A stretch of 64,000 bases of DNA from an uncultured Chlamydiales bacterium (GCA_963700985.1 OY969554.1:1344001-1408000); one strand, 5' to 3'; positions 2,406 to 64,000 are shown, numbered from the stretch's first letter. The notes: generated by a model not told the origin, from the letters alone. Translations and numbers: made by a program.

Positions 2406-2440
2406 AGCTGAAGCTCTCTTACGAGGGCTTCAGCTGTTTT
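2406..2440. terminator. Intrinsic terminator between convergent genes
   Basis: agctgaagctctc-ttac-gagggcttcagct followed by gtttt. Confidence 0.7.
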
Positions 2441-4453: not shown

Positions 4454-4474
4454 AATATAATGAAATTAATCTCT

Positions 4475-8188: not shown

Positions 8189-8197
8189 GGTGTGTGA

Positions 8198-9589: not shown

Positions 9590-9795
9590 GCAAGCCGTCC
9601 TTTGTATATTTTGTGCCGACACCCATTATGCAAAATTTGGGCCATTTCAAAAAGAGAAGAAAATTAAAAAGATTTATACCAGATGTCAATCATTTTTTAT
9701 TTTTACCATAGCCTCTTGCAATTGAAGACAATAGCGTAACGATGTTATGTCTTGTCACATATGCATATAAAAAAATTTAATGCGAGCGTTGCCTG

Positions 9796-10440: not shown

Positions 10441-10464
10441 CTACGCTTAGTTTTTGATTACAAA

Positions 10465-10878: not shown

Positions 10879-10958
10879 CTATCCTCCACGAGCTATTAGC
10901 TCTAAGCAACAACGCTCTTTACTGTATATATATGAGGTCCTATAATTTTTTCTCTATG

Positions 10959-11120
10959 AACCTATCCGAATAAAGGCTCTGGATGAGATTTTGGAATGGT
11001 TTGAGGTGGATTTTGAAGCGCCGACTGAAGACAATATTGAGAATAATATGGCTGAAGAAGGGGCTTCAAAAGGCACCCAAAGCAGCCAAAAGGTCTCCAG
11101 AGAGCTTATTAGGATAGGTT
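10959..11120. repeat. About 162-bp imperfect palindromic element (RPE/MITE-like) directly upstream of hisS
   Basis: The 5' arm aacctatccgaataaaggctctgga...ttttgg...ttttgaagc pairs with the 3' arm gcttcaaaa...ccaaaa...tccagagagcttattaggataggtt. Confidence 0.8.
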
Positions 11121-11122
11121 AA

Positions 11123-20175: not shown

Positions 20176-20215
20176 GTGGAAATCCGGTTTAAATTTAACA
20201 ACTAATAGGCAACAA

Positions 20216-21190: not shown

Positions 21191-21217
21191 TCCGATTTCT
21201 TAAAGAATGGAGGCAAA

Positions 21218-22273: not shown

Positions 22274-22308
22274 TAGAACCTGTAAATTAAAAAATAACGG
22301 AGAAAATT

Positions 22309-42777: not shown

Positions 42778-47145
<4,368 letters not shown>

Positions 47146-47163: not shown

Positions 47164-48099
47164 ATGAAATTCAAAACAATGCTTCTGTTCTTGGCCATCT
47201 CAATTGTCTTCATTAATTTATTCATGTATGCAAAAGAACCATTGCAAGCTGTTGATCGAAAAGAAAAAAAACACAACTTATCTATCTGTGCAATTTTTAA
47301 GAATGAAGCTAAGTTTCTGAAAGAATGGATCGAATATCATCGATTAGCCGGAGTCGACCATTTTTATCTTTATGACAATGGAAGCACAGATCGTTTTAAA
47401 GAAATACTCAACCCCTATATTAAAGATAAAGTTGTAACGCTAATCTATTGGCCAGAACGTGCCGATGAGACATCTGAAGAAAAAGCATTTGCTTGGGCCT
47501 TAAGCACTCAAGTTCCCGCTTATGAAAATGCAGTGAAATTTCGTGCACTGAATGAAACTACATGGCTCGTTTGCCTTGGCGTCCATGAGTTTCTTGTGCC
47601 ACCAAACGCTAACAGCCTCGTAGAAGTTTTGGAAAAATACAGAGATTATCCAGGCGTGACTCTTGCGAGTGATTTTTTTGATTCATCACAAGGCAATATC
47701 TTACCTCGAAGAAAATTACTGGTTCAAACGCTGGAACTCACCAAGGCTCCTTGGCAAAATCCTCAAAAAAGCGTTTCTAAAACCATTTTCAAACCAGCTT
47801 TATGCGAAGGCTTTCTCTGGCCACCTTATCAGTGTCTATTTAAAGATAATCAAATGGCTGTGATAGTAAGAAAAGATGAGATGCGCATCAATTATTATGC
47901 AAATCGAGATAAGAGCTATCTCTATTTTGATTCGCCAAAAAGCAAGTTGTACATCGATAATCGACTCTTAGCCGAAAGTGCAACAAGCGAGCTATTGGGC
48001 ATGGATTATGAAATCGAAGATCAAGAGCGTGCAATTTACCGTTTTGTACCGGCTCTTCTTAGCAAAATGGGCTTCGACTCTTCAGACTGGGGCTGGTAA
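47164..48099 (+). CDS. GT92/GT2-like glycosyltransferase-fold protein with N-terminal signal/TM segment and degenerate DxD
   Basis: LSICAIFKNEAKFLKEWIEYH..GVDHFYLYDNGSTD; WLVCLGVHEF where the family typically has W..xDxDEF. Confidence 0.85.
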   Translation: MKFKTMLLFLAISIVFINLFMYAKEPLQAVDRKEKKHNLSICAIFKNEAKFLKEWIEYHRLAGVDHFYLYDNGSTDRFKEILNPYIKDKVVTLIYWPERADETSEEKAFAWALSTQVPAYENAVKFRALNETTWLVCLGVHEFLVPPNANSLVEVLEKYRDYPGVTLASDFFDSSQGNILPRRKLLVQTLELTKAPWQNPQKSVSKTIFKPALCEGFLWPPYQCLFKDNQMAVIVRKDEMRINYYANRDKSYLYFDSPKSKLYIDNRLLAESATSELLGMDYEIEDQERAIYRFVPALLSKMGFDSSDWGW

Positions 48100-48271: not shown

Positions 48272-49840
48272 TTATGGGAAGTTAACGTTGATGATTTGGC
48301 TTTGCGATTGCTGATTATTTATAGCAGCAACACCATATGTTGTGGCGCCGTTTTGCACCTTATTGTCATCAATGATACTTAATATATCGGCATCAACCTG
48401 CACGAAAAAGGTTCCATTGCGATAAACATTATATGCAACAACGCTTGGATCTGTGCTCGCTGTCCAGCTTACTTTGTTGTAATATTCGCTAAAAACACCA
48501 AAATTATTCACATGCTGGGTAACAGTTGGACTTGAAGGGGGCAGAACGAGCGCCCTTTTTCCTTCTACTGCTTGGATTATGCTATTTGTGCCATTGTAAT
48601 TGATCCAAACAGCCGCTGCATTAATCGCATTTCCAGTGAGGGTTGCTGCTAATCTTGGAAATCCATTATCTGTGCCTGTAGAAAGATTAAGGGGAACAGA
48701 CCAAACAGTTTGCATAAAACCCGAAAAATTCATCTCCGAAGACTGCATAATTAGAGAATTCCCATTGTAAAACATATATGCAGTAAGCGCGTCGCCAATC
48801 GAACTCACAGCGAGATCTGCCTCAAACCCATACACACTATTTACAATTTCAACAGGAGCACTCCAATTCCCTCTCAATGGTAACACAGCTGATTGAATAT
48901 CAAAAGTTGCACCATCCAAAGATGTGTTCCATAGGGCAATCGCATTTCCGTTCGCATCAAAACCCACACGAGCTATGAGGCTAGCAGGATTATAAATTCC
49001 ATGAGCTGAAAGATTGACCGAAGATCCCCAAGAGCCAATTGCTGAATTCAGAAATGCCGATTGAACAACCACATTTGAATAGAGAGAACTTGCCACATTA
49101 AACCCATACCAGACTGCTACAGCATTAGCGTTTGCATCGACTGCCACATGCGCATATGCGGCATTGTTAGTTGCATTTGAAATGGCTGTTTGTGCAGTCC
49201 ATGAACCAGAAATGGGTTTACTTGCTGAATATACGACATTTGTAGATCCAGATGTACTATGCCATACGACAAAGGCCTTTGTGCTTGCTCCAGAACCACC
49301 GATTGCAACATGTGGAGAGGTTGCTGCGGTGCTGGTAATTGTAGCGTGCGCTTGCCAGCCTGCTCCGAAAAGTTTTGTCGACGATTCAATGTTGTTACTT
49401 CTTACCCAAACTGCAACTACATCGCCTGCAGAATCCACGGCTAGATCTGGCGAAGAGGCTCCTGAAGACGAGAGCGCAGTTGAAGAAGTCCAGCTTCCAC
49501 TGAAAGGTTTTGTCGCACCATAAACAATGCCGCCTACTAACCAGATAGCTGCCGCATTGCCGCTAGAATCCGAAGTGATCCGTGGAGATGAAGCACCTGA
49601 AGCTGATAAAGTCACCGGCGCGCTCCAACTCCCACTTAGATGCTTTGAACTGGATTTAACCAATCCATTTTCTACCCATGCGGCCACTAGATTGCCACTT
49701 GCATCTATCGCAATCTGTGGATCAGAAGCATTTAGGGTCACGGTCGAGAGCGTGGCAGGAGGAAATGACCATTGGATATTGTTCGCCATTAAACATGAAA
49801 ATGAAAACATTGTTAAAATGAGAATCGATAATTTTTTCAT
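48272..49840 (-). CDS. Exported beta-propeller-like repeat protein with C-terminal Fn3-like domain (paralogue 1)
   Basis: Signal MKKLSILILTMFSFSCLMA; repeats 'P-x-(I/L)A(I/V)D-x-x-G-(N/D)-x-x-A-(V/A)-W'; C-terminal VSWTASTDP..YNVYRNG. The ORF track starts at 49888. Confidence 0.8.
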   Translation of the reverse strand: MKKLSILILTMFSFSCLMANNIQWSFPPATLSTVTLNASDPQIAIDASGNLVAAWVENGLVKSSSKHLSGSWSAPVTLSASGASSPRITSDSSGNAAAIWLVGGIVYGATKPFSGSWTSSTALSSSGASSPDLAVDSAGDVVAVWVRSNNIESSTKLFGAGWQAHATITSTAATSPHVAIGGSGASTKAFVVWHSTSGSTNVVYSASKPISGSWTAQTAISNATNNAAYAHVAVDANANAVAVWYGFNVASSLYSNVVVQSAFLNSAIGSWGSSVNLSAHGIYNPASLIARVGFDANGNAIALWNTSLDGATFDIQSAVLPLRGNWSAPVEIVNSVYGFEADLAVSSIGDALTAYMFYNGNSLIMQSSEMNFSGFMQTVWSVPLNLSTGTDNGFPRLAATLTGNAINAAAVWINYNGTNSIIQAVEGKRALVLPPSSPTVTQHVNNFGVFSEYYNKVSWTASTDPSVVAYNVYRNGTFFVQVDADILSIIDDNKVQNGATTYGVAAINNQQSQSQIINVNFP

Positions 49841-49899
49841 AAGTCGACCTTTTGTATGATTAGCCTGGGAATCAAATCCCTTTGACAAATCAGTTTCGG

Positions 49900-49970: not shown

Positions 49971-51569
49971 TTAAGGAATGATAACTGTCTGAGTTGCGCT
50001 TTGGTCATATTCAAAATCGAAAGCTGCGACGCCATATACTGTCGGCGATCCGGTGCCGGTTTGCGGCTGGTTATGATCAACTACTGATGTATTAGGAACG
50101 GGCACTTGAGTATAAAGAACACCATTACGGTAAATGACGTACCCTTGTAGATTCGGATCTGTGCTTGCAGTCCAACTTACCGTGTTAACATAATCCGTAT
50201 AGACCCCATAATTTGTCGGCGTCTGCGAAACACTTAAATTAGTTGGAGGCATGATAACAGTTTTTGATCCTGTTGCCGCATTGACTCTAGTATTAGAGCC
50301 ATCAAAGTAAAGCCATACAACCGCGGCATTGATTGTGTTGCCTGAAAGAGCTGTGGCACCTTTTGGAAAACCATTATCAGTCCCTGTAGAGATAGTCTGC
50401 TGTGGCGAAAATGCATTAGCGATAAAACCGCCGAAATCTGTTTCAGCGACATCAATATCCGCATTTGTCCCATCAAAGAATATAAATGGCACTAGCGCGC
50501 TTCCTATCGAATTGATGGCTAGATCGGCCTGAAAGGCATATGGATTTTCACCATTGATTATAACTGATCCAGCAAAAGGTTGCCCAACTTGCAGAGAGGC
50601 AGATTCAATATTAAAATTTGAACCATCGATGGATCTGGTCCAGACCGCGATCAAATTTCCACTTGCATCATATGCAGTTTTTAAACTGAGGGTACTTGGG
50701 TCGCGCATGCCTGGATTCGATACCGTAAATGGCGTAGTCCAGGTAGTTGCTCCTGAGAGCAAAAATGAGGCAACGACAAGATCGTTGATGAAAACGGGAG
50801 TCGCACCATTTGATTGAAACCAGAGCACTGCAGCATTCCCATTAATGTCGATAGCTACTTTTGGGTAGTTTTGATTATTGCCAGTTGTTAAAACTAGATT
50901 GTTGGTTGTACCCCAGCTTCCTCCAACCGTCGAAATGACCGCCTGAATCTGATCTGCAGAATTAATCACACTATGCCATGCAACAATAACCTCGTGCCCT
51001 GTCCCATTGGAAATTGCAACCTGTGGATTACCCGAAACATTGGAAGAAGTAAGCATGCTCACTGAGCCCCAGCTTCCGCCCGAGAGTTTCGTTGCCGTTT
51101 CGATCAATGAATTGCGAGCCCAGACCGCTATAGCATCTCCGTTATTATCAACAGCCAGTGAGGGAGTCGAAGCTACACCTCCGGTTAAACTAGATACAGA
51201 AGTTTCTGCACTCCAACTGCCCCCAACTGGCATCGTTGCAGAACTAATCACACCATTTTCCACCCAAACGGCGATCACATTTCCACTCGAATCGATCCCG
51301 AGAAGAGGTGACGAAGCCGTAGAACCCGACAAGGTTGTAAGAGCGCCCCAGCTTCCGCCTGAAGGCATGGTGCTCGATTTAATTACAGCGCCTTCCACCC
51401 AAGCTGCCGTGATATTGCCGCTTGTGTCCATAACAACTTGAGGATCTAAGGCATTTACACCGGAACTTGAAATTGTAAGAGGAGAATTCCAAGCAAGATC
51501 ATTACATATTCCTTGAGAGAAGGAAAATATAGCTAAAATTAGGATCAGCATCTTTTTCATATTTACCAC
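49971..51569 (-). CDS. Exported beta-propeller-like repeat protein with C-terminal Fn3-like domain (paralogue 2)
   Basis: Same repeats and tail (VSWTASTDPNLQGYVIYRNG); signal MKKMLILILAIFSFSQGIC. Confidence 0.8.
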   Translation of the reverse strand: MVNMKKMLILILAIFSFSQGICNDLAWNSPLTISSSGVNALDPQVVMDTSGNITAAWVEGAVIKSSTMPSGGSWGALTTLSGSTASSPLLGIDSSGNVIAVWVENGVISSATMPVGGSWSAETSVSSLTGGVASTPSLAVDNNGDAIAVWARNSLIETATKLSGGSWGSVSMLTSSNVSGNPQVAISNGTGHEVIVAWHSVINSADQIQAVISTVGGSWGTTNNLVLTTGNNQNYPKVAIDINGNAAVLWFQSNGATPVFINDLVVASFLLSGATTWTTPFTVSNPGMRDPSTLSLKTAYDASGNLIAVWTRSIDGSNFNIESASLQVGQPFAGSVIINGENPYAFQADLAINSIGSALVPFIFFDGTNADIDVAETDFGGFIANAFSPQQTISTGTDNGFPKGATALSGNTINAAVVWLYFDGSNTRVNAATGSKTVIMPPTNLSVSQTPTNYGVYTDYVNTVSWTASTDPNLQGYVIYRNGVLYTQVPVPNTSVVDHNQPQTGTGSPTVYGVAAFDFEYDQSATQTVIIP

Positions 51570-51705: not shown

Positions 51706-53298
51706 TTAAGGAAGTGTGATTGTCTGAATTACACTCTGTTGTAACTGACCATCAAAAGCTGCTATGCCATATGTTACCGGAGATCCAGTGCCTGCTTGCG
51801 CTCTATTGTAATCCTCTATGGACGTAGTAGATGATGCCGCCGAAGCAAAAAAGATCCCATCACGGTAAACGGCATATCCCTGCAGGCCAGGATCTGTACT
51901 AGCGGTCCAGGTTATCGTATTGACATAGTCTATAAAGGCTCCAAAATTATTCGCGCTTTGTGAAACAGCTAGGCTCGTAGGAGGCAAAATTACAGATTTC
52001 GAACCAGTAACAGCGTTGATTCTAGTATTAGAACCATCGAAATTGATCCAAACAACAGCCCCATTAACGGTACTTCCATTGGTTGTTGTGGCTCCTCTCG
52101 GGAAAGCATTATCACTCCCGTTAGAGATCGTCAACGAGGGTGAGAAAGCGTTAGGTACGAAGCTGGCAATAAAAGCCTGGGTGACTTGAATAACCTCATT
52201 CGTCCCATCAAAAGTCATAAATGGCATCAAACCGGTTCCTGTTGAATCGATTGATAAGTCAATCTGTAAGTCATACACAGTTGAAGAGATAATTATGGGT
52301 CCTTGCAGAGTTCCTTGAACTTGTAAGGTAGCAGCCGAAGTGTTAAAAACTGAACCATCGGGAGATTCAGTCCAAACTGCAATCGCATTTCCATTAGGAT
52401 CAAAACCACACTTAAGAGTTAGGTTTGCCGGATTACGCTCTGTTATATTTGAGATTTGAATAGGTTGATTCCAGCTGGCAGCTCCCTCAAGATGCAGCGC
52501 CCCGATAACTACTGTATTGATAAAATCAGAGCCTGAGAGATCATTTCGGAACCAGACTGCAATGATGCGGCCATTATTGGCTGCGATTTGCGGGAAACTG
52601 AAATTATGGCCCGCAGCTTGTGCAGTGATGAGATTTTGCGCAGTGCCCCAAGTGCCGCCAACCGTCGGCGCGACAGACGCCAGAATTTGATCTGCTCCAG
52701 AAGCTACAGCATGCCAAACTATCGCTGCCTCTCCGTCTGAACCGATAGCAACTTGTGGTGAATCAGAGGTAGCATTCGAAAATGCATTCACAGAACCAAA
52801 GTTTCCACCAGCAAGCTGCGTCGCTGTTTCAATAAACCCATTGCGCTCCCAAACAGCAATCGCATCTCCTGAACTATCGACCGCTAGGGCGGGAGTAGAG
52901 GCCGCGCCCCCTGTTAAACTAGATATAGAAGACTCAGCACCAAAGCTTCCACCTGAGGGCTTTGTGGCAGTATTAATCACACCATTTTCATTCCAAATGG
53001 CATACACATTCCCATTTGAATCGATGCCAAGACGAGGCGACGTTGCAGTTGAACCCGACAAAGTTTGCGGGGAACTCCAGGTTCCACTGGTGTACGTACT
53101 TGATTTAATTACGGTGCCTTCTACCCAAGCGGCTGTGACGTTTCCGCTTGTATCCATAACAACCCGGGGATCGGAAGCATTAACACCTGAATCTGAAATA
53201 GGTGTGGGAGAACCCCAATTAATATTATTACATATCCCTTGGGAAAAGGAAAATATAGCCAGAACTAGGATCAGCATCTTTTTCATAATTACCACCAT
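51706..53298 (-). CDS. Exported beta-propeller-like repeat protein with C-terminal Fn3-like domain (paralogue 3)
   Basis: Closely similar to paralogue 2 (signal MKKMLILVLAIFSFSQGIC; ITWTASTDPGLQGYAVYRDG). Confidence 0.8.
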   Translation of the reverse strand: MVVIMKKMLILVLAIFSFSQGICNNINWGSPTPISDSGVNASDPRVVMDTSGNVTAAWVEGTVIKSSTYTSGTWSSPQTLSGSTATSPRLGIDSNGNVYAIWNENGVINTATKPSGGSFGAESSISSLTGGAASTPALAVDSSGDAIAVWERNGFIETATQLAGGNFGSVNAFSNATSDSPQVAIGSDGEAAIVWHAVASGADQILASVAPTVGGTWGTAQNLITAQAAGHNFSFPQIAANNGRIIAVWFRNDLSGSDFINTVVIGALHLEGAASWNQPIQISNITERNPANLTLKCGFDPNGNAIAVWTESPDGSVFNTSAATLQVQGTLQGPIIISSTVYDLQIDLSIDSTGTGLMPFMTFDGTNEVIQVTQAFIASFVPNAFSPSLTISNGSDNAFPRGATTTNGSTVNGAVVWINFDGSNTRINAVTGSKSVILPPTSLAVSQSANNFGAFIDYVNTITWTASTDPGLQGYAVYRDGIFFASAASSTTSIEDYNRAQAGTGSPVTYGIAAFDGQLQQSVIQTITLP

Positions 53299-53662: not shown

Positions 53663-56377
<2,715 letters not shown>

Positions 56378-56393
56378 CAACGAAACCTAAAAT

Positions 56394-57341
56394 ATGTTTG
56401 TAAACTTAAAAAAAAGCAAATTTCTTCTAATTTTGACAACCTTTCTTATCTCTATGGATTTATTTTCAGGGATAGAAATGCAAGAGTCGCCTCAAAATCA
56501 TTCCACTAAAAAACACCAATTGTCTATCTGTGCAATTTTTAAAAACGAAGCTAAATTCTTGAAAGAATGGATTGAATATCATCGATTAGTGGGAGTGGAC
56601 CATTTTTACCTTTATGACAACGGGAGCACAGATCGTTTCAAAGAAGTGCTCAGCCCCTATATTAAAGACAAAACCGTAACGTTAATCTACTGGCCGGAAC
56701 GTGCTGACGAAGCAGATGAAGAAGAGGCCTACAAGTGGGTGCTAAGCACACAAATTCCCGCATACGAAAATGCTGTGAGCTTTCGCGCATTGAATGAAAC
56801 AGAGTGGCTGGTGTGCCTTGCCGTCCACGAATTTCTGGTGCCACCAAATGCAAATAATCTCTTAGAGGTCTTAGAACAATATAAGGATTATCCAGGTATC
56901 AATCTTGTGAGTGATTTTTTCGATGCATCACAAAGCAACATTCTACCTAGAAGAAAATTGCTTGTGCAAACAGTTGAACTCACAAAAACCCCTTGGCAAA
57001 ATCCTCAAAAAAGAGTCTCTAAGACGATCTTCAAACCTCATCAATGTAAAGGCTTTCTCTGGCCTCCATATCAGTGCCTTTTTAAAGATAATCAAATTGC
57101 AGCAACTGTGCGCAAAGATGAGATCCGCATCAATTATTATGCAAATCGAGATAAGAGCTATCTCTATTTTGATTCACCTAAAAGCATGTTGCATGTCGAT
57201 AATCGACTTTTAGCCGAAAGCGCAACTCGCGAACTATTGAGCATGGATTATGCCATCGAAGACCAAGAGCACGCGATCGACCATTTTGTACCCGCTCTCC
57301 TTAACAAAATGGGCTTCGACTCTTTAGACTGGGGCTGGTAA
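56394..57341 (+). CDS. GT92/GT2-like protein, close paralogue of 47164..48099, degenerate DxD
   Basis: LSICAIFKNEAKFLKEWIEYH, YDNGSTD, WLVCLAVHEF, and the same DWGW C-terminus. Confidence 0.85.
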   Translation: MFVNLKKSKFLLILTTFLISMDLFSGIEMQESPQNHSTKKHQLSICAIFKNEAKFLKEWIEYHRLVGVDHFYLYDNGSTDRFKEVLSPYIKDKTVTLIYWPERADEADEEEAYKWVLSTQIPAYENAVSFRALNETEWLVCLAVHEFLVPPNANNLLEVLEQYKDYPGINLVSDFFDASQSNILPRRKLLVQTVELTKTPWQNPQKRVSKTIFKPHQCKGFLWPPYQCLFKDNQIAATVRKDEIRINYYANRDKSYLYFDSPKSMLHVDNRLLAESATRELLSMDYAIEDQEHAIDHFVPALLNKMGFDSLDWGW

Positions 57342-57536: not shown

Positions 57537-58739
57537 ATGTTACGATTTCTTTTTTCTCTGCTTCTTCTATTCCTCCCTGTTGTCTCTCACTCCAAAGAAA
57601 AACCCTTCGAAGAGAAAATTTGCCTAAACATGATTGTCAAAAATGAGAGCAAAGTGATCCAACGCTGTTTGGACTCCGTGAAACCTTTCATTGATTATTG
57701 GGTGATTGTCGATACAGGCTCAACCGATGGAACTCAAGAGATCATCAAAAAACATCTGAAAGGCATTCCAGGAAAGCTGCATGAGCGTCCCTGGAAAAAT
57801 TTCGGTGAGAACCGAAGTGAAGCATTCGAGCTTGCGAAGGGAAAAGGCGATTACATTCTATTTATGGACGCCGACGACCTAATAGAATTCGAGCCAGGTT
57901 TTATATCCGAGCCTCTCACAAAAGACCTATATAACATGTGGCGCGGCGTAAAAGGTTTCACCTACTTAAAGCCTCAATTAGTTAAAGGGAATCTTCCTTG
58001 GAAATGGGTCGGTGTAACACATGAGTATCTGGATTGTTCTAAGCCCTACTCTTCCGATATTATTAAAGGCGTTCATTATAAAGATGGCGATGGCGGCGCG
58101 CGCTCCACTGGCATTCAAAAATTCCTCAGAAACATCGAGCTGCTTACCGAGGGTCTCAAAAAAGAGCCAGACAATTCTCGTTATGCTTTTTATTTGGCAG
58201 AAAGTTACCGCGATGCGGGCCAGAAAGCCAAAGCTCTTGAATGGTTTCAAAAGCGGGTCAAAATGGGTGGCTGGGATGAGGAGACCTTCTGGTCTTTGCT
58301 GCAGATCGGCCACATGCTGCGCGATCTCGGCCTTTCGCCTAGTGTGGTGATCGAAAGCTACAAACTTGCACGCAATTTTCGCCCACATCGAGCTGAACCG
58401 ATCTATTACCTTGCTGAAATGTTCAATCAGCAAGAGGAATACAGTAATGCATACGCAACCTTGAGGGCTTGGGAATTCGTTGCCAAACCGAAAGAAAAAG
58501 ACACCTTATTTAATATGGACTGGATCGAAGAATATGGTCTTCTGTTCCAACTCTCGATCTGTTCTTATTATGTGGGCAACTATCAAGAATCACTAGATAC
58601 GTGCGATAAATTGCTCGCCTACGAAGATCTGCCTGAAGATTGGCGTAAACGAGCGGAGGCCAACCGCATTTTTCCTTTCTCTAAACTTCAAACACAAAAA
58701 GAACTTGCAAGCCGAGAAAACCTAAACATTTTTGAATAA
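57537..58739 (+). CDS. GT2 glycosyltransferase with C-terminal TPR repeats and N-terminal signal peptide
   Basis: ICLNMIVKNE, VIVDTGSTDGT, intact MDADD, GVTHE, TPR-like FYLAESYRDAG and RPHRAEPIYYLA. Confidence 0.9.
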   Translation: MLRFLFSLLLLFLPVVSHSKEKPFEEKICLNMIVKNESKVIQRCLDSVKPFIDYWVIVDTGSTDGTQEIIKKHLKGIPGKLHERPWKNFGENRSEAFELAKGKGDYILFMDADDLIEFEPGFISEPLTKDLYNMWRGVKGFTYLKPQLVKGNLPWKWVGVTHEYLDCSKPYSSDIIKGVHYKDGDGGARSTGIQKFLRNIELLTEGLKKEPDNSRYAFYLAESYRDAGQKAKALEWFQKRVKMGGWDEETFWSLLQIGHMLRDLGLSPSVVIESYKLARNFRPHRAEPIYYLAEMFNQQEEYSNAYATLRAWEFVAKPKEKDTLFNMDWIEEYGLLFQLSICSYYVGNYQESLDTCDKLLAYEDLPEDWRKRAEANRIFPFSKLQTQKELASRENLNIFE

Positions 58740-58753
58740 TTTCTAGAGGCCTT

Positions 58754-59773
58754 ATGTCTGTTAGTTTGTTAACTCGATCTTTCTTACTTTTGATCTGCAG
58801 TTGTAGTATTCTGAATGCTGCTCATGTTCCAAATAGTTGCATCGCGAAAGTTCAGCCTGAAGCAAACCATGTTATTCGCTTTTGCACGACTCGCAGTTTA
58901 ACAGATGGCGCCCTAAAAAACTCATTGCTGCTGCAACTCAAACATGCTTTCAAAATCAAAGTGTTTGTGGAGACTGGTACCTACCTCGGACAGACTACGC
59001 TTGAAGCCGCTAAACTCTTTAAGCAAGTTCATACTATTGAGCTATCGGAAGAACTGTGTAACAAGGCCAAAAATCGCTTAAAAGAATGGGGAAACACCTC
59101 TGTTCATCAAGGCAGCTCCGATGAGCTGCTTAAGCAGCTATTGCCTTCTATTTCTCAGCGCATACTTTTCTATCTAGATGGACATTACAGCGGTGGAATT
59201 ACTGCAAAAGGCGTCCAGAATACGCCTGTTTTGGAAGAGTTAGTAGCGATTAAAAATGCGGGAAAATCTGACAGCGTTATTCTTATTGATGACATCCGCT
59301 TATTTCAAGATTCGCTTTACCCAGAAAAAATTAAAAAATTTCACGTTCAAGATTATCCCGACATAAGTCAAATTATCACCGCCCTCTTGCAGATTAATCC
59401 TCGCTATCAGATCTGCTTTTTAAGCGATGCTCTGCTGGCTTTTCCGGAAGATGCCTCTGTGAGCGTTTCACCAGTTGTTAGTGCTTGCACCATGCATCGG
59501 CTCTCTTATATTTGCCCAGAGCTTTCTGAAGAAACTTTAAACAGCGCAGACCTCATCATCGGAAGGGCAGAAGAAGATGAACAAGACGAAATCGCTACCT
59601 ATTACCTAACCTATGCACCTTTTGAATTAGAGCATGGATACCGTTGTTATGGAGCCCTTTGGTTTGGACTTGTGCTTAAAGAACAGGGAAAAAATCAACA
59701 AGCTATAACCCTTCTTCAACACGCTATGCAAAATAGCATGCCAAATTGGAGAGTTGAAAAGGTATTATACTAG
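58754..59773 (+). CDS. Class I SAM-dependent methyltransferase-like protein with signal peptide
   Basis: FVETGTYLGQT, TIELS, FYLDGHYSGG, ILIDDIR. Confidence 0.7.
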   Translation: MSVSLLTRSFLLLICSCSILNAAHVPNSCIAKVQPEANHVIRFCTTRSLTDGALKNSLLLQLKHAFKIKVFVETGTYLGQTTLEAAKLFKQVHTIELSEELCNKAKNRLKEWGNTSVHQGSSDELLKQLLPSISQRILFYLDGHYSGGITAKGVQNTPVLEELVAIKNAGKSDSVILIDDIRLFQDSLYPEKIKKFHVQDYPDISQIITALLQINPRYQICFLSDALLAFPEDASVSVSPVVSACTMHRLSYICPELSEETLNSADLIIGRAEEDEQDEIATYYLTYAPFELEHGYRCYGALWFGLVLKEQGKNQQAITLLQHAMQNSMPNWRVEKVLY

Positions 59774-59774
59774 T

Positions 59775-61196
59775 ATGCGCACACTCTTATTTCTGATTTT
59801 TACGCTCTTCAGTTTAAAATTATGTAGCCAAGAGGGCAGCTATAAATTCGAAGGCCACTTCAGAGAGCCTGATGGTGAAAAGCGGCTCTTTCTAACTACG
59901 TTTTTTCTGCCTTACAATCCCACGATTATCACCTTCAGTAGTGATCCGGCGATTACAACCAAATGTGCCTATTGGTGGCCTAAAGGGAAACTTTCAGATG
60001 CACAAGATATTGATTCAGAATGCGATTTTTTGTGGATTGATAGTGACGGTCATGAACTTGCGATTCTTCAAAATAGAGAGGATCTTGTACAGAAGGCCAA
60101 AGTTATCTATACAACCACGCACTTCTTCAAGCAAGGAACCTACTACCAAAAATTAAAATTTCTTTTAGAGCTTAACGGTTTTACGCTTCTTTCTCATTGG
60201 TACTGGGAAGGTCAGCAAGGCAATGCTATTTTTGTTAAAAAAAACAGGTTTGAAGCTGCCATGCGAAGCTTAAATTACGTACCTCATGGCGTTGCGGCTC
60301 CTTCCAACCCTTCTTTAGCTTGGAATATGCAGCGCTTTTTTCAGCCCGCAACAGGAAAATCTAGTCATCACAACTTTGATCAGATCGACTTCATTTACAT
60401 GATCAACCTAGATGAAAGACCTGAGAAATTTGCTTTAGCGGCAGGAGGGCTGGCGCCTTTTGGGATTTACCCTTATCGTTTTTCCGCCGTGAATGGATGG
60501 AAATTATCTCCCACGACTCTCAATCAAGTTGGGGTGCAATTCCATTCTGAAACTCCCAGAGAAAATTTTCTGGCCACTGTTTACAGAGAAATCGATGGTC
60601 GTGATTATGTTAGTAACGAGCTCATCCAAGAAAATAACACAAACTATTTCTCCTTGGGCATGTCTCGTGGTGCAATTGGAATTGTCTTAAGTCACTTATC
60701 GGTTTTACAAGACGCCTATGATTCGGGTTACAACACCATTTGGGTGATGGAAGATGATGTCGAAGCCGTTGCGGATCCAAGACAAATACCAGAGTTAATT
60801 CGAAAATTGGATCGGTTAGAAGAATGGGATATCTTATTTACAGACACCGATACAAAAGATAGGAACGGTCACCACGTGCCTTGCCGAGCGCTTGCCGCTC
60901 GTCCTAATATTAACATAGGGCCGCTTTCATCTTTCTTCCAACGCTTCCATTCTGTTAGTAGTGACTTTAATAGAATCGGCATGCGTTATGGGGCATACTC
61001 CATGATCATTCGTCGCTCTGGGATAGAAAAAATCTTAAGGCATTTTAAAACTCATCGCATTTACCTACCTTATGACATGGATTTTTGGCTAGAGCCAGAG
61101 CTTAAAATGTTCTGCGTCAAAAGAGACATCGTTTCACACAGAGCAGGTGCATTGTCTGACAATAATGCTCCGAGCTACATAAAGAAAATGGAGTAA
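59775..61196 (+). CDS. GT25-like glycosyltransferase with an N-terminal FkbM-like fragment and signal peptide
   Basis: IYMINLDERPE, RFSAVNG, GAIGIVLSHL, VMEDD, GAYSMII; N-terminal DFLWIDSDGHEL. ATG at 59775 (ORF track 59754). Confidence 0.8.
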   Translation: MRTLLFLIFTLFSLKLCSQEGSYKFEGHFREPDGEKRLFLTTFFLPYNPTIITFSSDPAITTKCAYWWPKGKLSDAQDIDSECDFLWIDSDGHELAILQNREDLVQKAKVIYTTTHFFKQGTYYQKLKFLLELNGFTLLSHWYWEGQQGNAIFVKKNRFEAAMRSLNYVPHGVAAPSNPSLAWNMQRFFQPATGKSSHHNFDQIDFIYMINLDERPEKFALAAGGLAPFGIYPYRFSAVNGWKLSPTTLNQVGVQFHSETPRENFLATVYREIDGRDYVSNELIQENNTNYFSLGMSRGAIGIVLSHLSVLQDAYDSGYNTIWVMEDDVEAVADPRQIPELIRKLDRLEEWDILFTDTDTKDRNGHHVPCRALAARPNINIGPLSSFFQRFHSVSSDFNRIGMRYGAYSMIIRRSGIEKILRHFKTHRIYLPYDMDFWLEPELKMFCVKRDIVSHRAGALSDNNAPSYIKKME

Positions 61197-61202
61197 TCTT
61201 GA

Positions 61203-62204
61203 TTGTCTTTGATAGGAAACTCTCTTAAAAAAACCGTTTTTTCTCTCTTAACCCTCTTGTTTAACTTTGCATATGGATTTCATGATGCTGAGCTTTATAA
61301 AGTCTGGGCTTCGATAGTAGATATCAATAATCCCACCCTTGAAGAGTATAAATTAATCGAAAGCTACTTAAATTGCGGCAAAAGACCTTACCTAGATGAT
61401 TTGCGAAAATCCGCTTTAATGATGGACGATTTAAAGATGGGTTGCTTTGCAAGACTGAATCTTATGCTCAACTTCAAACTCGTTGGCTACAACGATGAAA
61501 TGCCGCTTTTCGAAAAATTCAGTTTCAATATCAATGAAAATTCAAAAAACCGATGCATCGTTCTATTCTGTTCATATAACGGAATTTATCCAAATAAAGC
61601 ACGGAAAGTCCTCTCTGAGTTAAAACAAAGAGGCTATAGCGGCCATGTTCTCTTACGCATTGGAGGATTTCCCAATCTCGAGAATGAAGGGATTAAACTC
61701 TGCCACGTACCTTATGCCTTCAAAGTCTCTTTTCTTCGCGAAGCCCAACTACTTGGCTATAAGGAAGTTCTTTGGATAGACTCTGCCCTGCATCCTCTGA
61801 CGAATTTAGAGGAAATTTTCTCTGAAATCAAAGAGCGTGGATATTTTTTTACTTCGGTAGGAACTCTCTCTGCTAATCATCGATATCACCTTCCGAATGC
61901 AGCGACATCGCTGCATATTGATGCGACATTATACGATCAAATTTCCCATATATCTTCTAGTATCATCGGGTTAAATTTAGAAAATCAACGAGTAGCGCAG
62001 CTCTTAAAAAACTGGCATCGAGAAACTGAAAGTATCTATCCAAATATCACCTGGTTCCCTGAAGAATTAAGCCTATCTGTGGTTGCTTGGCAGCTGCAAT
62101 GCAGGCCTTCTAATACATTTGGAAATATCGTCTGCGCTGAGCATGAATTGTCTCACATTCAGCATCGACCTAAGCTGCAATTTTTTTTAGATGCACTTAG
62201 GTAA
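61203..62204 (+). CDS. Hypothetical GT-A-fold glycosyltransferase-like protein with signal-like N-terminus
   Basis: PYAFK....EA...Y..VLWIDS motif; located in a glycosylation gene cluster. Confidence 0.55.
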   Translation: MSLIGNSLKKTVFSLLTLLFNFAYGFHDAELYKVWASIVDINNPTLEEYKLIESYLNCGKRPYLDDLRKSALMMDDLKMGCFARLNLMLNFKLVGYNDEMPLFEKFSFNINENSKNRCIVLFCSYNGIYPNKARKVLSELKQRGYSGHVLLRIGGFPNLENEGIKLCHVPYAFKVSFLREAQLLGYKEVLWIDSALHPLTNLEEIFSEIKERGYFFTSVGTLSANHRYHLPNAATSLHIDATLYDQISHISSSIIGLNLENQRVAQLLKNWHRETESIYPNITWFPEELSLSVVAWQLQCRPSNTFGNIVCAEHELSHIQHRPKLQFFLDALR

Positions 62205-62228
62205 AATTTATCACTGAGGAAATCCTAA

Positions 62229-62978
62229 ATGCTTTTTCTAATTTTCGTTTTTTCTACGCTATTGAATATCGCTTATTGCGACATGGAAAATCATGGCGGA
62301 GACATAGATATTCGCGAATTAAATGGAGAAGCTCTTTTTGTGAGCCTAGGTTCTTATTGTGCTCCAGCCAGCCTCGTCAGATCTTGTGGTTACAGAAAAG
62401 CGGCATTTCCTTTTGATTGGAATATCACAATGGACGGAGAAAAATTAATCGAAATGTTAGAAAATGATTTTGCGTATTTTTTCGATGATGAATATTTGAT
62501 GCCCTTTGCTAGAGGAAGTGCTCTTTTACATACATATTATCATATCGAATTTGTACATGAAGGAGTTTGGGATGTAGACCAGTATGCTCCAAATATGGAA
62601 ATTTTAAGATCAAAATATCTAAGAAGGATTGAGCGGTTTCGCCAATTAAAAAACTACCCTGGAAAGGTATTTTTCTTGAGATCTGCGTATATTTATTCCG
62701 TAGAAGATAGTCATCGTGCGTACAAATTTAAGGAAAACATTGAAATCTCCGATAAGCAATCCCTAAAACTTTATGACTCTCTCAAAAGGTTCTTTCCAAA
62801 TTTGGACTTTAGCTTACTAGTTATAAACAATCACGAACTAGATAGTGTAGTAGAGGAGAAAAGATTGTCTGACAACTTAATTAAATTTAGAGCTCCCGCT
62901 TTAAACGAATCTCTCATGATCACATCTTACAAGGAATTCTTTCCAAAATTATTGAATCTATCCGCACCTAAAGAGTAA
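62229..62978 (+). CDS. DUF1796-like putative papain-type protein with signal peptide
   Basis: FVSLGSYC...AFPFDW...FVHE...KYLRRIERF. Confidence 0.65.
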   Translation: MLFLIFVFSTLLNIAYCDMENHGGDIDIRELNGEALFVSLGSYCAPASLVRSCGYRKAAFPFDWNITMDGEKLIEMLENDFAYFFDDEYLMPFARGSALLHTYYHIEFVHEGVWDVDQYAPNMEILRSKYLRRIERFRQLKNYPGKVFFLRSAYIYSVEDSHRAYKFKENIEISDKQSLKLYDSLKRFFPNLDFSLLVINNHELDSVVEEKRLSDNLIKFRAPALNESLMITSYKEFFPKLLNLSAPKE

Positions 62979-62983
62979 TTTTT

Positions 62984-64000
62984 TTAGTTTTTTACTGCTT
63001 TTAGCGAGCGCATAAGCGCATCTTTATCAATGGTGGCGATCCATACCTCAGAGTCATCCTTTCCATAAGCTACATATATGTGGGAACCAGAAATAGCAAA
63101 ACCACCTGGAAAGACCACTCTTTTTTCATTTGAAGACTCCGTATAAAAGCCATCTGCTGCAATTGGTTGCTGGGACATTTTTGTGATCTGAAAAGGTGGC
63201 TGGGCCGCAAAAGTATAGGCTCCCATGAAATAGTGCCATAACTCCCATCCCATGGTGACTGATGAATTGGCTTTGACTCCCGAATGAAAAAAAGCTAGGT
63301 ATTCGCCATCAACAAGAAGGGGTGGTGTCGACCCTCTCAGTTTTCCCCATTTCCACTTGATATCCATCCAGGTTTCATAGCAATGATAGCAGGACCCACT
63401 CATCAGGTTTGGATAGATAATTTCATGTGGGTTGATCGAATAAATCAGAAGAAGAGTGTTATTCCATTCGAAAGGAACCCAATTTTTTTGCCACATCTGC
63501 GTGTGGTATTTTTCGTTGTAGACTAACTTGAGCGGTGAAGAGAGCTTGAAATCATTATCTCCAAAAGAGAGCTCGGCTATGAAAATATCGCGTCTTTCCC
63601 AAGTTTGTGGATTTGTGATTTCAACATTATCATTGTAGATAAGAAAAAGCCGCCCCTTATAAGAAAAGACCCGCGCATCTTCTGCCTGCGAGGGGGTCCT
63701 GCTTTGTTTCGAGCGAGCACTCAATAATTTAGGTTCCGAAACCTGTTCGAGCATCTCGTTTAAGAGAACCACTCCAATATAAGAAAGGCCTGAGTTATAT
63801 ACGTCAGGGCAATATCTAAAGGTGAGCAGAAAGCCTTCGGGAATTTTGATAATAGATGGATTAAAGGCACCTGGAAATTTATCCAATTTAATCTCAGTTG
63901 TAGCAATGACAATTTCTTGAGCTGTCAGCAAATCCTCTATAATATCTCCTGCGAATAGGCGCTGTGAAACAATACAGCTTAGCGGAAATGTGAAAACCAA
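62984..64000 (-). CDS. GH130-like beta-propeller glycosidase/mannosyltransferase-type protein (true start may lie beyond the window end)
   Basis: AFNPSII, AEDARVF, WQKNWVPF, LRGSTP, VVFPGG, VAYGKDD. Confidence 0.7.
   Translation of the reverse strand: MVFTFPLSCIVSQRLFAGDIIEDLLTAQEIVIATTEIKLDKFPGAFNPSIIKIPEGFLLTFRYCPDVYNSGLSYIGVVLLNEMLEQVSEPKLLSARSKQSRTPSQAEDARVFSYKGRLFLIYNDNVEITNPQTWERRDIFIAELSFGDNDFKLSSPLKLVYNEKYHTQMWQKNWVPFEWNNTLLLIYSINPHEIIYPNLMSGSCYHCYETWMDIKWKWGKLRGSTPPLLVDGEYLAFFHSGVKANSSVTMGWELWHYFMGAYTFAAQPPFQITKMSQQPIAADGFYTESSNEKRVVFPGGFAISGSHIYVAYGKDDSEVWIATIDKDALMRSLKAVKN

Follow-up and report, generated by a model that had tools for sequence, protein, structure and literature searches.

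Conserved chlamydial gene island of exported sugar- and methyl-adding enzymes beside threonine-rich collagens suggests extracytoplasmic glycosylation

The DNA analysed (the window) was a stretch of 64,000 nucleotides from an uncultured Chlamydiales bacterium (GCA_963700985.1 OY969554.1:1344001-1408000). An island of 23 genes and 32 kb starts in it at position 42835 and runs to about 11 kb past its end. A first-pass annotation had described signal-peptide-like segments on the glycan-modifying genes between 57537 and 64000; the feature was confirmed, and it reaches back from there to 42835 and runs on for 11 kb past the window.

The first gene, COL1 (42835..47145, + strand), encodes 1436 aa with an N-terminal signal peptide, a Pfam Collagen score of 553 bits and a non-collagenous C-terminal domain, about 140 aa long, that ends in ...FMTIVKLQ. 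Thr occupies Y in 357 of its 403 G-X-Y triplets. COL2 (53681..56377, + strand; 898 aa, signal peptide, Pfam Collagen 276 bits) has 220 triplets, 159 with Thr at Y; its C-terminal domain matched BclA_C below threshold (25.9 bits vs a Pfam cut-off of 38) and no entry in a PDB sequence search. Thr at Y thus reaches 72-89% in the two proteins, and Lys is nearly absent from the repeats (1-2 residues). By gene neighbourhood and analogy, COL1 and COL2 are proposed as glycosylation substrates. GXT collagen-like ORFs were found in 12 of 79 related loci, although the repeats break assemblies.

Directly 3' of each collagen gene, after a gap of 16-18 bp, lies a GT92 gene. GT92a (47164..48099, + strand; 311 aa, 18 bp after COL1; PF01697, 70.9 bits) opens with the hydrophobic stretch MKFKTMLLFLAISIVFINLFMYA (47164-47232), for which our own rule recognised no clear -3/-1 cleavage site. 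GT92b (56394..57341, + strand; 315 aa, 16 bp after COL2; PF01697, 80.3 bits) begins with the signal-peptide-like (SP-like) segment MFVNLKKSKFLLILTTFLISMDLFSG (56394-56471). In both proteins x-V-H-E-F takes the place of the D-x-D-E-F of relatives, which leaves their activity uncertain. The minus strand encodes three exported paralogues, each about 530 aa long (48272-49888, 49971-51569 and 51706-53298), with signal peptides of the type MKKMLILILAIFSFSQG. They matched no Pfam family and, weakly and below cut-off, an NCBIfam PDIAV-lipoprotein model. Homologues occur in 10-11 loci, are SP-like in 13 of 15 cases with complete N-termini, and adjoin the enzymes in other genomes too; these proteins may be a partner or a second substrate.

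GT2-TPRa (57537..58739, + strand; 400 aa) combines a GT2 catalytic domain containing the motif FMDADD with TPR repeats (Pfam) and starts with the signal peptide MLRFLFSLLLLFLPVVSHS (57537-57593). Its nearest solved relatives in the PDB are GmaR (1.6e-14) and SunS (3.3e-12), both protein or peptide glycosyltransferases; the NCBIfam SunS equivalog model scored 51 vs a cut-off of 350. We propose GT2-TPRa as an initiating protein O-glycosyltransferase. The next gene, MT24x (58754..59773, + strand; 339 aa), has the motif FVETGTYLG and the signal peptide MSVSLLTRSFLLLICSCSILNA (58754-58819), given earlier as ...SFLLLICSCSILNA. The name methyltransferase, used for it in the first-pass annotation, has weak backing in Pfam (20 bits, under cut-off), and all methyltransferase matches in Pfam, PDB and NCBIfam were sub-threshold; judged by sequence, it is probably a class I SAM methyltransferase. 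Its family numbers 2523 proteins, some of them fused to FkbM or GT11. Most of the long chlamydial members bear a signal, and most of the short distant ones do not (signal absent in 19 of 24 full-length cases).

A fusion of an FkbM fragment (27.5 bits in Pfam) with GT25 (28.4 bits, cut-off 24) follows at 59775..61196 (+ strand; 473 aa from ATG 59775). Its signal peptide is MRTLLFLIFTLFSLKLCS (59775-59828), and no second in-frame start was found in the first 70 codons after 59775. U333 (61203..62204, + strand; 333 aa), which matched no Pfam family, has a signal peptide quoted before as ...VFSLLTLLFNFAYG and ending in ...LLFNFAYG (61203-61277). Its AlphaFold2 model (pLDDT 95.8) was matched by Foldseek to LARGE1, XXYLT1, GTA/GTB, LgtC and glycogenin (E about 1e-5, TM 0.33-0.54); a retaining glycosyltransferase of GT-A fold, GT8/GT6-like in type, is predicted. 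D193 is nearly invariant in the U333 family, which comprises 800 representative clusters. The DUF1796-family protein (62229..62978, + strand; 249 aa; PF08795, 47.1 bits) carries the signal peptide MLFLIFVFSTLLNIAYC (62229-62279). The minus-strand gene at 62984..64000, which continues to 64072 past the window end and had been named GT92-like, instead encodes a GH130-like protein (362 aa; PF04041, 36 bits) of the beta-mannoside phosphorylase/synthase fold family; its N-terminus is weakly hydrophobic in this genome. The other family names, GT92 (80 and 71 bits), GT2 with TPR (59 bits), GT25 and DUF1796, were backed by Pfam.

Beyond the window end, positions are given in L011 coordinates (window coordinate minus 62000). 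On the minus strand lie GT2-TPRb (2077-4245), a GT47/RXYLT1-like gene (4242-5741), U262 (5725-6513), FkbM (6524-7291), GT25a (7363-8298), the O-methyltransferase genes OMTa (8308-8988) and OMTb (8999-9685), GT25b (9698-10627) and GT25c (12155-13093); an IAT-beta-like outer-membrane protein is encoded on the plus strand (10920-12125). The operon core GT25-OMT-OMT-GT25-U262-GT2TPRb-GH130L is conserved across loci, and E162-D163-D164 of GT25 is present in at least 90% of 123 aligned sequences.

Signal peptides were called with a rule-based heuristic of our own, not with SignalP, in a strict setting and a lenient one allowing any start. The hydrophobic N-termini quoted in the first-pass annotation were all present at the named genes (57537, 58754, 59754 with its ATG at 59775, 61203, 62229, 47164 and 56394). 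Under the strict rule 18 of 23 island ORFs were SP-like, vs 295 of 1786 (16.5%) among all other ORFs of the genome (Fisher p 1.8e-10); under the lenient rule the figures were 21 of 23 vs 531 of 1786 (about 30%; p 1.5e-9), both p-values being overstated because adjacent genes are not independent. Four cytoplasmic controls (TPK, PurA, GltX and an FAD reductase) were called SP-like by the lenient rule. Mip, Tsp and a BamD-like protein, known exported proteins of the same window, scored like the island enzymes. Exceptions to the pattern are OMTb, which has no hydrophobic N-terminus, and the GH130-like protein with its weak one; COL2, GT25a and the IAT-beta-like protein were also below the strict threshold.

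Across hundreds of homologues from chlamydiae, what persists is the presence of such a segment and not its sequence: the hydrophobic stretch varies, and the first mature residues are conserved. Among GT25 database homologues, 108 of 118 full-length proteins were SP-like, with a variable core followed by a mature start of the A/G|DLEDHLKK type. SP-like N-termini were also scored in 102 of the best 120 homologues of GT2-TPRa (also counted as 104 of 118) and in 108 of 142 full-length members of the U333 family, a further 9 being classed as possibly transmembrane. In the 79 related loci, SP-like N-termini were found in GT25 (123/128), GT92 (21/21), FkbM (27/27), U262 (31/32), GT47-like (11/12) and GT2-TPRb (15/16) proteins. 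DUF1796 homologues were SP-like in 11 and TM-like in 2 of 13 cases, GH130-like homologues in 37 and 10 of 50. A signal is always missing from the OMTb type (32 of 90 homologues). Within the same genome, none of 7 GT4 enzymes, no classical GT2 and no member of an O-antigen-like cluster with Wzx carried one, and GT2 proteins with a signal are restricted to the three GT2-TPR paralogues plus one membrane GT2. By computation, then, the signals are real, kept throughout the phylum, and particular to the enzyme families and the gene neighbourhood described here.

The hydrophobic N-termini are genuine Sec-type export signals, probably cleaved by signal peptidase I. Hydrophobic cores comprise about 10-16 residues, with a median of 12 in the island enzymes and only one of at least 19; over the island and the scored homologues (108-120 per family) medians were 10-13, and cores of at least 19 were almost absent (0, 0 and 1). 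Flank charges in the island enzymes are +1.5 on the N-terminal side and -1.1 in the acidic 15-residue C-flank. The N-flank is the more positive in 14 of 15 scorable enzymes, with reversal in none; the GH130-like protein, having no hydrophobic core by the rule, was left out of this scoring. Small residues stand at -3/-1 in most island enzymes, and the upstream starts are preceded by Shine-Dalgarno-like motifs. If the segments were uncleaved type II signal anchors, the logic would be unchanged, but the enzymes would form a Golgi-like array tethered to the cytoplasmic membrane with periplasmic catalytic domains, in place of soluble periplasmic enzymes. The GT47-like segment of 20 hydrophobic residues, the missing -3/-1 site of GT92a and TM-like scores in the 10 GH130-like homologues and a few others fit such anchoring, and the GT47-like protein, GT92a and the GH130-like protein with its weak N-terminus could be anchored. 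For the set as a whole this is unlikely, since the hydrophobic lengths are short for a stable membrane helix and A/G at -1, directly followed by a conserved mature start, is what cleaved signals typically show.

Nucleotide-sugar glycosyltransferases and SAM methyltransferases are normally cytoplasmic, and we know of no characterised bacterial Leloir enzyme that works in the periplasm. The earlier observation that enzymes of these kinds carry signals here was borne out, GT4 and classical GT2 enzymes being free of them. Comparison with cytoplasmic relatives identified the signal as an N-terminal add-on: residue 6 of GmaR aligns to residue 23 of GT2-TPRa. Like GmaR, the flagellin O-GlcNAc transferase of Listeria, and SunS, the sublancin S-glycosyltransferase, both of which act directly on proteins or peptides with UDP-sugar donors, the GT2-TPR proteins carry TPR or helical repeats behind a GT2 catalytic domain. 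Unlike cytoplasmic GmaR, which has no signal peptide and whose catalytic domain starts at about residue 6, they have an extra signal of about 20 residues.

The Golgi analogy drawn in the first-pass annotation is apt. Signal-bearing families in the genome are GT25, GT92, GT90, GT17, GT47-like and the GT8/GT6-like fold, and their best or top solved matches are the ER/Golgi-lumenal COLGALT1, POGLUT1/2, LARGE1 and XXYLT1. GT25, GT90 and the GT8-like fold are shared with eukaryotic ER/Golgi glycosylation by solved matches, and GT92, GT17 and GT47-like by Pfam; both sets have an N-terminal export or anchor signal and a catalytic domain on the non-cytoplasmic side. Unlike the ER/Golgi system, the chlamydial signals are of the bacterial signal-peptidase-I type, and the searches yielded neither a nucleotide-sugar transporter nor a lumenal NDPase. 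The hydroxylysine chemistry of COLGALT1 cannot apply to a Thr-rich collagen acceptor with 1-2 Lys in its repeats.

BclA-type "hairy nap" glycoproteins are Thr-rich G-X-Y collagens of the Bacillus/Clostridioides exosporium. Their G-X-Thr repeats, C-terminal globular domain of about 140 aa and adjoining genes for glycosyltransferases and sugar methyltransferases resemble the island, and the Thr-rich triplets are likely O-glycan sites. BclA lacks a Sec signal and receives its glycans in the cytoplasm of the mother cell, from enzymes that have no signal either. The chlamydial collagens and enzymes differ in both having Sec-type signals, and the BclA_C match is sub-threshold. PglB/PglL systems likewise yield glycosylated exported proteins in a Gram-negative envelope; there the glycan is assembled on a lipid carrier in the cytoplasm, flipped, and transferred by a GT-C enzyme. 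In Pfam, no oligosaccharyltransferase, flippase or lipid-carrier enzyme family was hit by any of the 23 proteins of the island.

Literature searches found no description of a system like that of the island. On balance we favour, from sequence alone, O-glycosylation and methylation of collagen fibres outside the cytoplasm by the Sec-exported enzyme set. The signals would place the enzymes outside the cytoplasmic membrane, in the periplasm, at the cell surface or in the inclusion lumen. GT2-TPR (of the GmaR/SunS kind) would start O-glycosylation, and the other exported Leloir-type enzymes (four GT25, two GT92, GT47-like, the Pfam-less GT-A and GH130-like proteins) and SAM-type methyltransferases (FkbM, cation-dependent O-MT and MT24x) would build methylated O-glycans on the co-encoded exported collagen-like proteins. 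The extracytoplasmic glycosylation line proposed in the first-pass annotation thus stands as to its signals, which are genuine, selected and of Sec type; it is not wholly extracytoplasmic, as OMTb, conserved in the operon without a signal, means that at least one step may be cytoplasmic.

The check for transporters proposed at the outset gave a mixed result: the genome has 2-3 NTT nucleotide transporters (2 full) and 3 DMT/EamA proteins, and no TPT-type nucleotide-sugar transporter scored above cut-off. CD39-type NDPase, UshA and an exporter were looked for in the genome and not found, and metK is absent from this 99% complete genome. The NTT and DMT transporters, together with the lack of metK, make it plausible that nucleotides and SAM from the host occur in the periplasm. 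The enzymes would need nucleotide sugars as well as SAM outside the cytoplasm, which is plausible only in view of life inside host cells and of existing import, through the periplasm, of host nucleotides and, metK being absent, SAM; a host origin of the sugar donors is putative. Host UDP-glucose is described as entering the chlamydial inclusion via SLC35D2, where enzymes secreted by the bacterium use it (Gehre et al. 2016, PMC4829429); this Chlamydia trachomatis system shares with the one proposed here a glycosyltransferase that acts outside the bacterial cytoplasm. The glycogen system of that report differs in its type III secretion, whereas Sec signals, other families and linkage to protein substrates are found here.

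That precedent of sugar-metabolising enzymes secreted into the inclusion lumen (PMC4829429) also fits enzymes that are Sec-exported and afterwards set free, by type II secretion for instance, to remodel as effectors not collagens but host glycoconjugates, either in host compartments or on the inclusion membrane's lumenal side. The likeness to host ER/Golgi-lumenal enzymes and the pseudopilin-like genes of the genome (N-termini, L084) point the same way. We consider this improbable, given the tight and repeated linkage of the enzymes to bacterial genes for exported GXT-collagens and the ~530-aa paralogues, the resemblance of GT2-TPR to glycosyltransferases of bacterial proteins and peptides, and a host target indicated by none of the results. 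Still less probable is that the exported proteins are enzyme-derived glycan-binding or scaffold parts of a surface layer, with any glycosylation done elsewhere. The canonical D-x-D is lost in GT92a/b and the transporter and NDPase searches identified no donor supply route, but catalytic-type motifs are kept (E162-D163-D164 of GT25, D193 of U333, FMDADD of GT2-TPRa, and the SAM motif FVETGTY in MT24x relatives), and 60-70% identity across families of thousands fits purifying selection on enzymes. Over-extended ORFs or reverse anchors, both raised in the first-pass annotation, would leave the catalytic domains in the cytoplasm, the site of nucleotide-sugar and SAM synthesis, and are barely credible: downstream in-frame starts would remove the segment in GT2-TPRa (codon 31), DUF1796 (codon 18) and GT92b (codon 28), the internal Met is the annotated start of 9 of 120 GT2-TPRa homologues in the database, and the genome makes GDP- and dTDP/CDP-type sugars in the cytoplasm, but in several families over 85% of the homologues keep the segment, residues before the internal Met are conserved (KEKICLN between signal and Met in GT2-TPRa), 59775 has no alternative start, the cytoplasmic GT4 and GT2 enzymes lack the segment, and the short cores have positive N- and negative C-flanks, never reversed.

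Giant-virus glycosylation enzymes act in the host cytoplasm and have no signal peptides. Viral contigs yielded no relative of the GT25 subfamily, and GT25a matched mimivirus R655 weakly (E 0.3). The GT47-like protein matched PBCV-1 A075L (exostosin-like; E 1.7e-18), and the U333 fold matched PBCV-1 A64R among others.

The genome is a single contig of 2.07 Mb (44.8% GC), and the closest named relatives of its genes were found in MAGs labelled Rhabdochlamydiaceae, Parachlamydiaceae, Waddliaceae or just Chlamydiae. Chlamydial-looking housekeeping genes in the window included a fused SecDF, a Mip-type FKBP and a tail-specific protease. The region from 57537 to 64000 comprises six forward genes and the beginning of one reverse gene. 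The hydrophobic N-termini quoted for this region in the first-pass annotation were all found in the sequence at the genes named there. Its domain labels were confirmed by Pfam for GT2 plus TPR (GT2-TPRa, 57537..58739, +), for GT25 fused to an FkbM fragment (59775), for DUF1796 (62229) and for GT92 (56394). Three other labels were revised. The "methyltransferase" at 58754 (MT24x, 58754..59773, +) gave sub-threshold matches only, the GT-A-like protein U333 (61203..62204, +) was without a Pfam family, and the gene from 62984 onward (-) was GH130-like and not GT92-like.

The region belongs to an island of 23 ORFs in approximately 32 kb, which continues 11 kb beyond the window end. Upstream of it, two collagen-like proteins are encoded, COL1 (42835-47145) and COL2 (53681-56377). 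Each is followed after 16 to 18 bp by one GT92 gene (GT92a, 47164-48099; GT92b, 56394-57341), and three paralogous exported proteins of approximately 530 aa are encoded between them on the opposite strand. Beyond the window, the island contains a second GT2-TPR gene (GT2-TPRb, 722 aa), a GT47/RXYLT1-like protein (top solved match chlorovirus exostosin-like A075L, E 1.7e-18), a 262-aa protein (U262), an FkbM methyltransferase and three further GT25 genes. It also contains a pair of cation-dependent O-methyltransferase paralogues with 38% identity (OMTa and OMTb; OMTb at L011:8999-9685, window coordinate 70999-71685, -). An IAT-beta-like protein of 401 aa (L011:10920-12125, window coordinate 72920-74125, +) carries a signal peptide and gave an inverse-autotransporter beta-domain match of 24.6 bits. 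It sits within the enzyme operon and was found in 10 related loci; it could serve as outer-membrane anchor or pore for fibres. Past the island, housekeeping genes begin again at an ORF with an N-terminus resembling D-Ala-D-Ala ligase. Across related loci, a core recurred in the order GT25, OMT without signal, OMT with signal, GT25, U262, GT2-TPRb and GH130-like, often adjoined by GT92, the 530-aa family and collagen.

Signal peptides were assigned with our own rule-based test, which evaluates hydrophobic core, charge, segment length and the -3/-1 rule and involves no trained predictor. Crude whole-genome ORFs (n=1809) were used as background set. With the strict rule, 18 of the 23 island ORFs passed versus 295 of 1786 (16.5%) elsewhere in the genome (Fisher p 1.8e-10). 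With the lenient rule (any start, first 30 codons), the numbers were 21/23 and 531/1786 (29.7%; p 1.5e-9). These p-values overstate the enrichment because adjacent genes are not independent; the contrast between the island and the rest is still large. In the window, the lenient rule recovered Mip, Tsp and a BamD-like lipoprotein as true positives, and four cytoplasmic controls (TPK, PurA, GltX and FAD reductase) as false positives. The first-pass annotation had assigned a signal-like segment to nearly every glycan-modifying gene of the region. This holds for most of the island, including its part beyond that region, but not for OMTb, the one conserved operon member without signal.

The segments are very probably real Sec-type export signals. 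They lie at the extreme N-terminus, have a positive n-region, and their h-region is shorter than a transmembrane helix. In the 15 island enzymes scored, the median hydrophobic length was 12 residues, and only the GT47-like protein reached 19 or more (20 residues); medians in homologues were 10 to 12.5 (108-120 scored per family). The N-flank carried a mean charge of +1.53, and the following 15 residues of -1.07. N-flank charge exceeded C-flank charge in 14 of these 15 enzymes and none was reversed, which predicts an N-in, C-out orientation. Small residues at -3/-1 were found by our rule in most island enzymes, and GT92a has no such site.

Two other explanations had been named in the first-pass annotation, and the combined evidence argues strongly against both. 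If the segments were uncleaved anchors, the catalytic domains might face the cytoplasm; charge asymmetry, segment length and the comparison with homologues speak against this orientation. Uncleaved anchors with periplasmic catalytic domains may account for a minority of the segments. If the true starts lay downstream, the segments would be artefacts of gene calling; this is made unlikely by Shine-Dalgarno-like motifs before the upstream starts, by gene 59775, which has no alternative in-frame start within 70 codons, and by conserved residues ahead of the internal Met of GT2-TPRa. Lipoprotein-type signals were ruled out, as no consistent lipobox preceded Cys residues. From signals and charge asymmetry, the catalytic domains of the exported enzymes are predicted to lie on the non-cytoplasmic side.

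The strongest argument for real signals comes from the comparison with relatives. For GT25a, 2187 database relatives were found, and the best 120 (all at least 61% identical) were analyzed. Among the 118 full-length sequences of this set, 108 were signal-peptide-like, and the hydrophobic length had a median of 13 (range 8-17). The hydrophobic stretch varies in sequence and ends with A/G; the mature protein then starts with conserved residues of the DLEDHLKK type. For GT2-TPRa, at least 5526 relatives were found; in the best 120, 104 of 118 full-length sequences were signal-peptide-like. Nine relatives scored as "none" all start at the internal Met of a conserved CLNMIVK motif, and are taken as short gene calls because KEKICLN ahead of this Met is conserved in others. 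Comparison with the cytoplasmic relative GmaR placed GmaR residue 6 opposite GT2-TPRa residue 23, so that the segment is absent from GmaR. The U333 family comprises 800 representative clusters, and in its best 150 sequences 108 of 142 full-length members were signal-peptide-like and 9 fell in the TM? class of the rule.

In 79 related loci, homologues with complete N-terminus were counted, and any start upstream of the aligned domain was allowed. Signal-peptide-like N-termini were present in 123/128 GT25, 21/21 GT92, 27/27 FkbM, 31/32 U262, 11/12 GT47-like, 15/16 GT2-TPRb and 9/12 GT2-TPRa proteins. For DUF1796 the count was 11/13 with two TM-like, and for GH130-like 37/50 with ten TM-like. Relatives of MT24x with at least 280 aa, mostly from chlamydial records, were signal-peptide-like in 73 of 93 full-length cases; 19 of 24 full-length short distant relatives were without signal. 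The OMTb type accounted for 32 of 90 OMT homologues in other genomes and was never signal-bearing. OMTb has a conserved hydrophilic N-terminus with a P-P-A-S-H-Y-E-Y-type motif, which is also present in signal-less OMT homologues, and this type hints at one cytoplasmic step.

The same genome provided internal controls. A classical glycan cluster (four GT4, one GT2, GDP- and dTDP/CDP-sugar enzymes and a Wzx flippase) contained no glycosyltransferase with a signal. Genome-wide, none of the seven GT4 ORFs was signal-bearing, and the strict rule was passed among ten GT2 ORFs only by three GT2-TPR paralogues and one 603-aa membrane-anchored GT2. Signal-peptide-like or TM-like N-termini were detected by our rule throughout a cluster at contig positions 1603001-1609000 (GT90, two GT92, GT17 and Methyltransf_24) and in a second one at 163001-171000 (FkbM and GT92); the pattern is therefore genome-wide and not restricted to the island. 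The GT90 protein of the former cluster matched human POGLUT2 (E 5e-32), and the top solved match of GT25a was human procollagen galactosyltransferase 1 (E 2e-5). The signal accordingly follows particular families, those with best-studied members active in the ER or Golgi lumen. An FkbM methyltransferase directly after the Wzx flippase (L083:10826-11668, +, contig 1593826-1594668) has a signal-peptide-like N-terminus in an otherwise signal-less O-antigen-like cluster, which hints at methylation after flipping. Far from the island, a Methyltransf_24 protein (window 1242-1970, -; 33.6 bits) is signal-peptide-like if an internal Met is the start.

The four GT25 domains (PF01755) scored 45.8, 41.6, 46.6 and 28.4 bits against a cut-off of 24, and the acidic metal-binding motif E162-D163-D164 was conserved in at least 90% of 123 sequences. 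A disulfide signature was dropped as a feature, since the sole conserved Cys feature was an uninformative C-x-C pair. The GT92 proteins (PF01697) scored 80.3 (56394) and 70.9 bits (47164) against a cut-off of 23. GT92a, GT92b and their closest orthologue (L002_7) carry x-V-H-E-F, and most of 22 aligned relatives carry D-x-D-E-F or near variants. The activity of GT92a and GT92b is therefore uncertain, and they may have a different metal ligand or altered catalysis. GT2-TPRa is not a member of the SunS equivalog TIGR04195 (51 bits, cut-off 350); its likeness to SunS and GmaR is confined to the GT2 domain and the repeats and concerns mode of action, not family membership. Relatives of MT24x include fusions with FkbM and with a GT11 fucosyltransferase domain, which fits a role as glycan methyltransferase.

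The structure of U333 was predicted with AlphaFold2 from an 84-sequence alignment (pLDDT 95.8, pTM 0.91); an earlier model from 6 sequences (pLDDT 52) was set aside. The predicted fold matched LARGE1, XXYLT1, ABO transferases, LgtC, glycogenin and PBCV-1 A64R (E ~1e-5, probability 1.0, TM 0.33-0.54). The similarity of U333 to GT-A retaining transferases of the GT8/GT6 kind is moderate and at the level of the fold, which does not imply family membership. Fusions to GT25 or GT2 domains occur in some members of the U333 family, and a profile of 6 U333 sequences gave no match to PDB sequences. For U262, the ESM Atlas yielded nothing beyond unnamed clusters and a weak lead to a methyltransferase.

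The collagen-like proteins are the candidate substrate. Thr occupies position Y in 357 of the 403 G-X-Y triplets of COL1 and in 159 of the 220 of COL2 (Pfam Collagen 554 and 276 bits, respectively). Their repeats contain only 2 (COL1) and 1 (COL2) Lys, and hydroxylysine galactosylation of the COLGALT1 type was therefore ruled out. BclA is O-glycosylated at Thr, and by analogy Thr O-glycosylation of this kind would be the natural model for the collagen repeats. The C-terminal domain (~140 aa) matched the TNF/C1q-like domain BclA_C (PF18573) with 25.9 bits, below the cut-off of 38, and gave no match to PDB sequences. Both proteins carry signal peptides and nearly identical N-domains (window 42835-43150 and 53681-54000), in which C-K-D-C precedes G-P-P-G-P-Q-G triplets and a run of Gly; through these cysteines, the fibres might be cross-linked into the envelope. 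GXT collagen-like ORFs with the same C-terminal ending, many of them broken by contig ends, adjoin the enzymes in 12 of the 79 related loci. GC content of the repeats is 58-60% versus 45% in the genome. Long ORFs that overlap the collagen genes in another frame or on the opposite strand, at 43257-46691 (-), 43355-45568 (+) and 53944-55881 (-), up to 1144 aa, were rejected as genes and are by-products of the GC-rich G-X-Y repeats.

Extracytoplasmic action of the enzymes on the collagen-like proteins is, in our view, somewhat favoured. The GT2-TPR enzymes would start the glycan, because they resemble enzymes that directly glycosylate proteins or peptides. It would then be lengthened by GT25, GT92, U333, the GT47-like and the GH130-like protein, and capped by FkbM and the O-methyltransferases; this order of steps is inferred.

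Exported Leloir enzymes and methyltransferases need nucleotide sugars and SAM outside the cytoplasm. Two full and one partial match to NTT transporters and three DMT/EamA proteins were found in the genome. No metK (S-adenosylmethionine synthetase, PF02773) was found in this 99% complete genome despite many SAM-type methyltransferases, which implies SAM import. A host origin of the donors is possible but rather doubtful. PMC3104491 reports a chlamydial SAM transporter, and PMC4829429 describes host UDP-glucose that enters the chlamydial inclusion and is used there by secreted bacterial enzymes; by analogy, host metabolites crossing the periplasm are plausible donors. Alternatively, the donors would be the bacterium's own sugars exported by some route, and it does make GDP- and dTDP/CDP-type sugars itself. 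The GH130-like enzyme might use a sugar-1-phosphate as donor.

The extracytoplasmic, Golgi-like line proposed in the first-pass annotation is thus supported in its export signals but not in its donor supply. The predicted topology is similar to that of ER/Golgi glycosylation, but a genome search gave no TPT-type nucleotide-sugar transporter over the cut-off, no UshA-type nucleotidase and no CD39-type NDPase (GDA1_CD39), the last of these being weak evidence because control genomes were equally silent. The island differs from OTase-dependent periplasmic glycosylation, as none of its 23 proteins matches OTase, flippase or lipid-carrier families in Pfam; the Wzx-type flippase of the genome is in the separate signal-less cluster. 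Functionally it is comparable to a BclA-type collagen glycoprotein locus, with which it shares Thr-rich G-X-Y repeats. To our knowledge, all characterised bacterial glycosylation either consumes nucleotide sugars inside the cytoplasm or relies on lipid-linked or non-nucleotide donors beyond it, and we know of no characterised bacterial pathway with exported nucleotide-sugar transferases.

Tentatively, and against the balance of our own expectation, a bacterial counterpart of the Golgi may be envisaged in environmental chlamydiae, and perhaps in other amoeba-associated intracellular bacteria. Sec-exported Leloir glycosyltransferases and SAM methyltransferases would act in the periplasm or inclusion lumen with host-supplied nucleotide sugars and SAM, and would build a methylated glycan coat on collagen-like surface fibres. 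Ancient gene exchange would explain why the GT25, GT92, GT90, GT17, GT47-like and GT8-like families are shared with the secretory pathway of eukaryotes, and the lumenal topology would have been kept. If so, exported nucleotide-sugar-type transferases and SAM methyltransferases across the phylum would constitute a third glycosylation design, which makes sense only in a cell surrounded by metabolites of its host. Such a design would offer a handle on the small molecules reaching the chlamydial periplasm or inclusion lumen, on the surface cover of environmental chlamydiae, and on the sharing of enzyme families between chlamydiae and the eukaryotic secretory pathway. Proof of topology and of host-derived donor supply would bring the system close to a new category. 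At least two large unannotated families were defined, the Pfam-less GT-A family U333 and the Pfam-unassigned MT24x. No description of the cluster was found in the literature (collagens, exported glycosyltransferases, BclA in Chlamydiae), in a search with most subscription journals outside its coverage.

Among 401 sampled genomes of the phylum, 105 carried GT25a-like genes (E <= 1e-30); carriers numbered 88 among 335 high-quality genomes, and 61 of 212 genera were represented. Tandem copies were frequent, and some families had none in the genomes searched. No relatives of the GT25 subfamily were found in viral contigs. Four carriers labelled Verrucomicrobiae or Bacteroidetes each had 3-8 NTT-family matches, and 14 free-living controls gave no such match. 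Within the sample examined, this ties the system to intracellular energy parasites. A relative of MT24x with a signal peptide (39% identical) belongs to a record labelled Candidatus Dependentiae, a lineage that likewise lives inside cells in association with amoebae, and export of glycan-modifying enzymes may extend beyond chlamydiae. Elsewhere in the window, four tandem leucine-rich-repeat proteins (19222-23466, +) are without signal peptides; such signal-less proteins are typical candidate host-interaction proteins of environmental chlamydiae.
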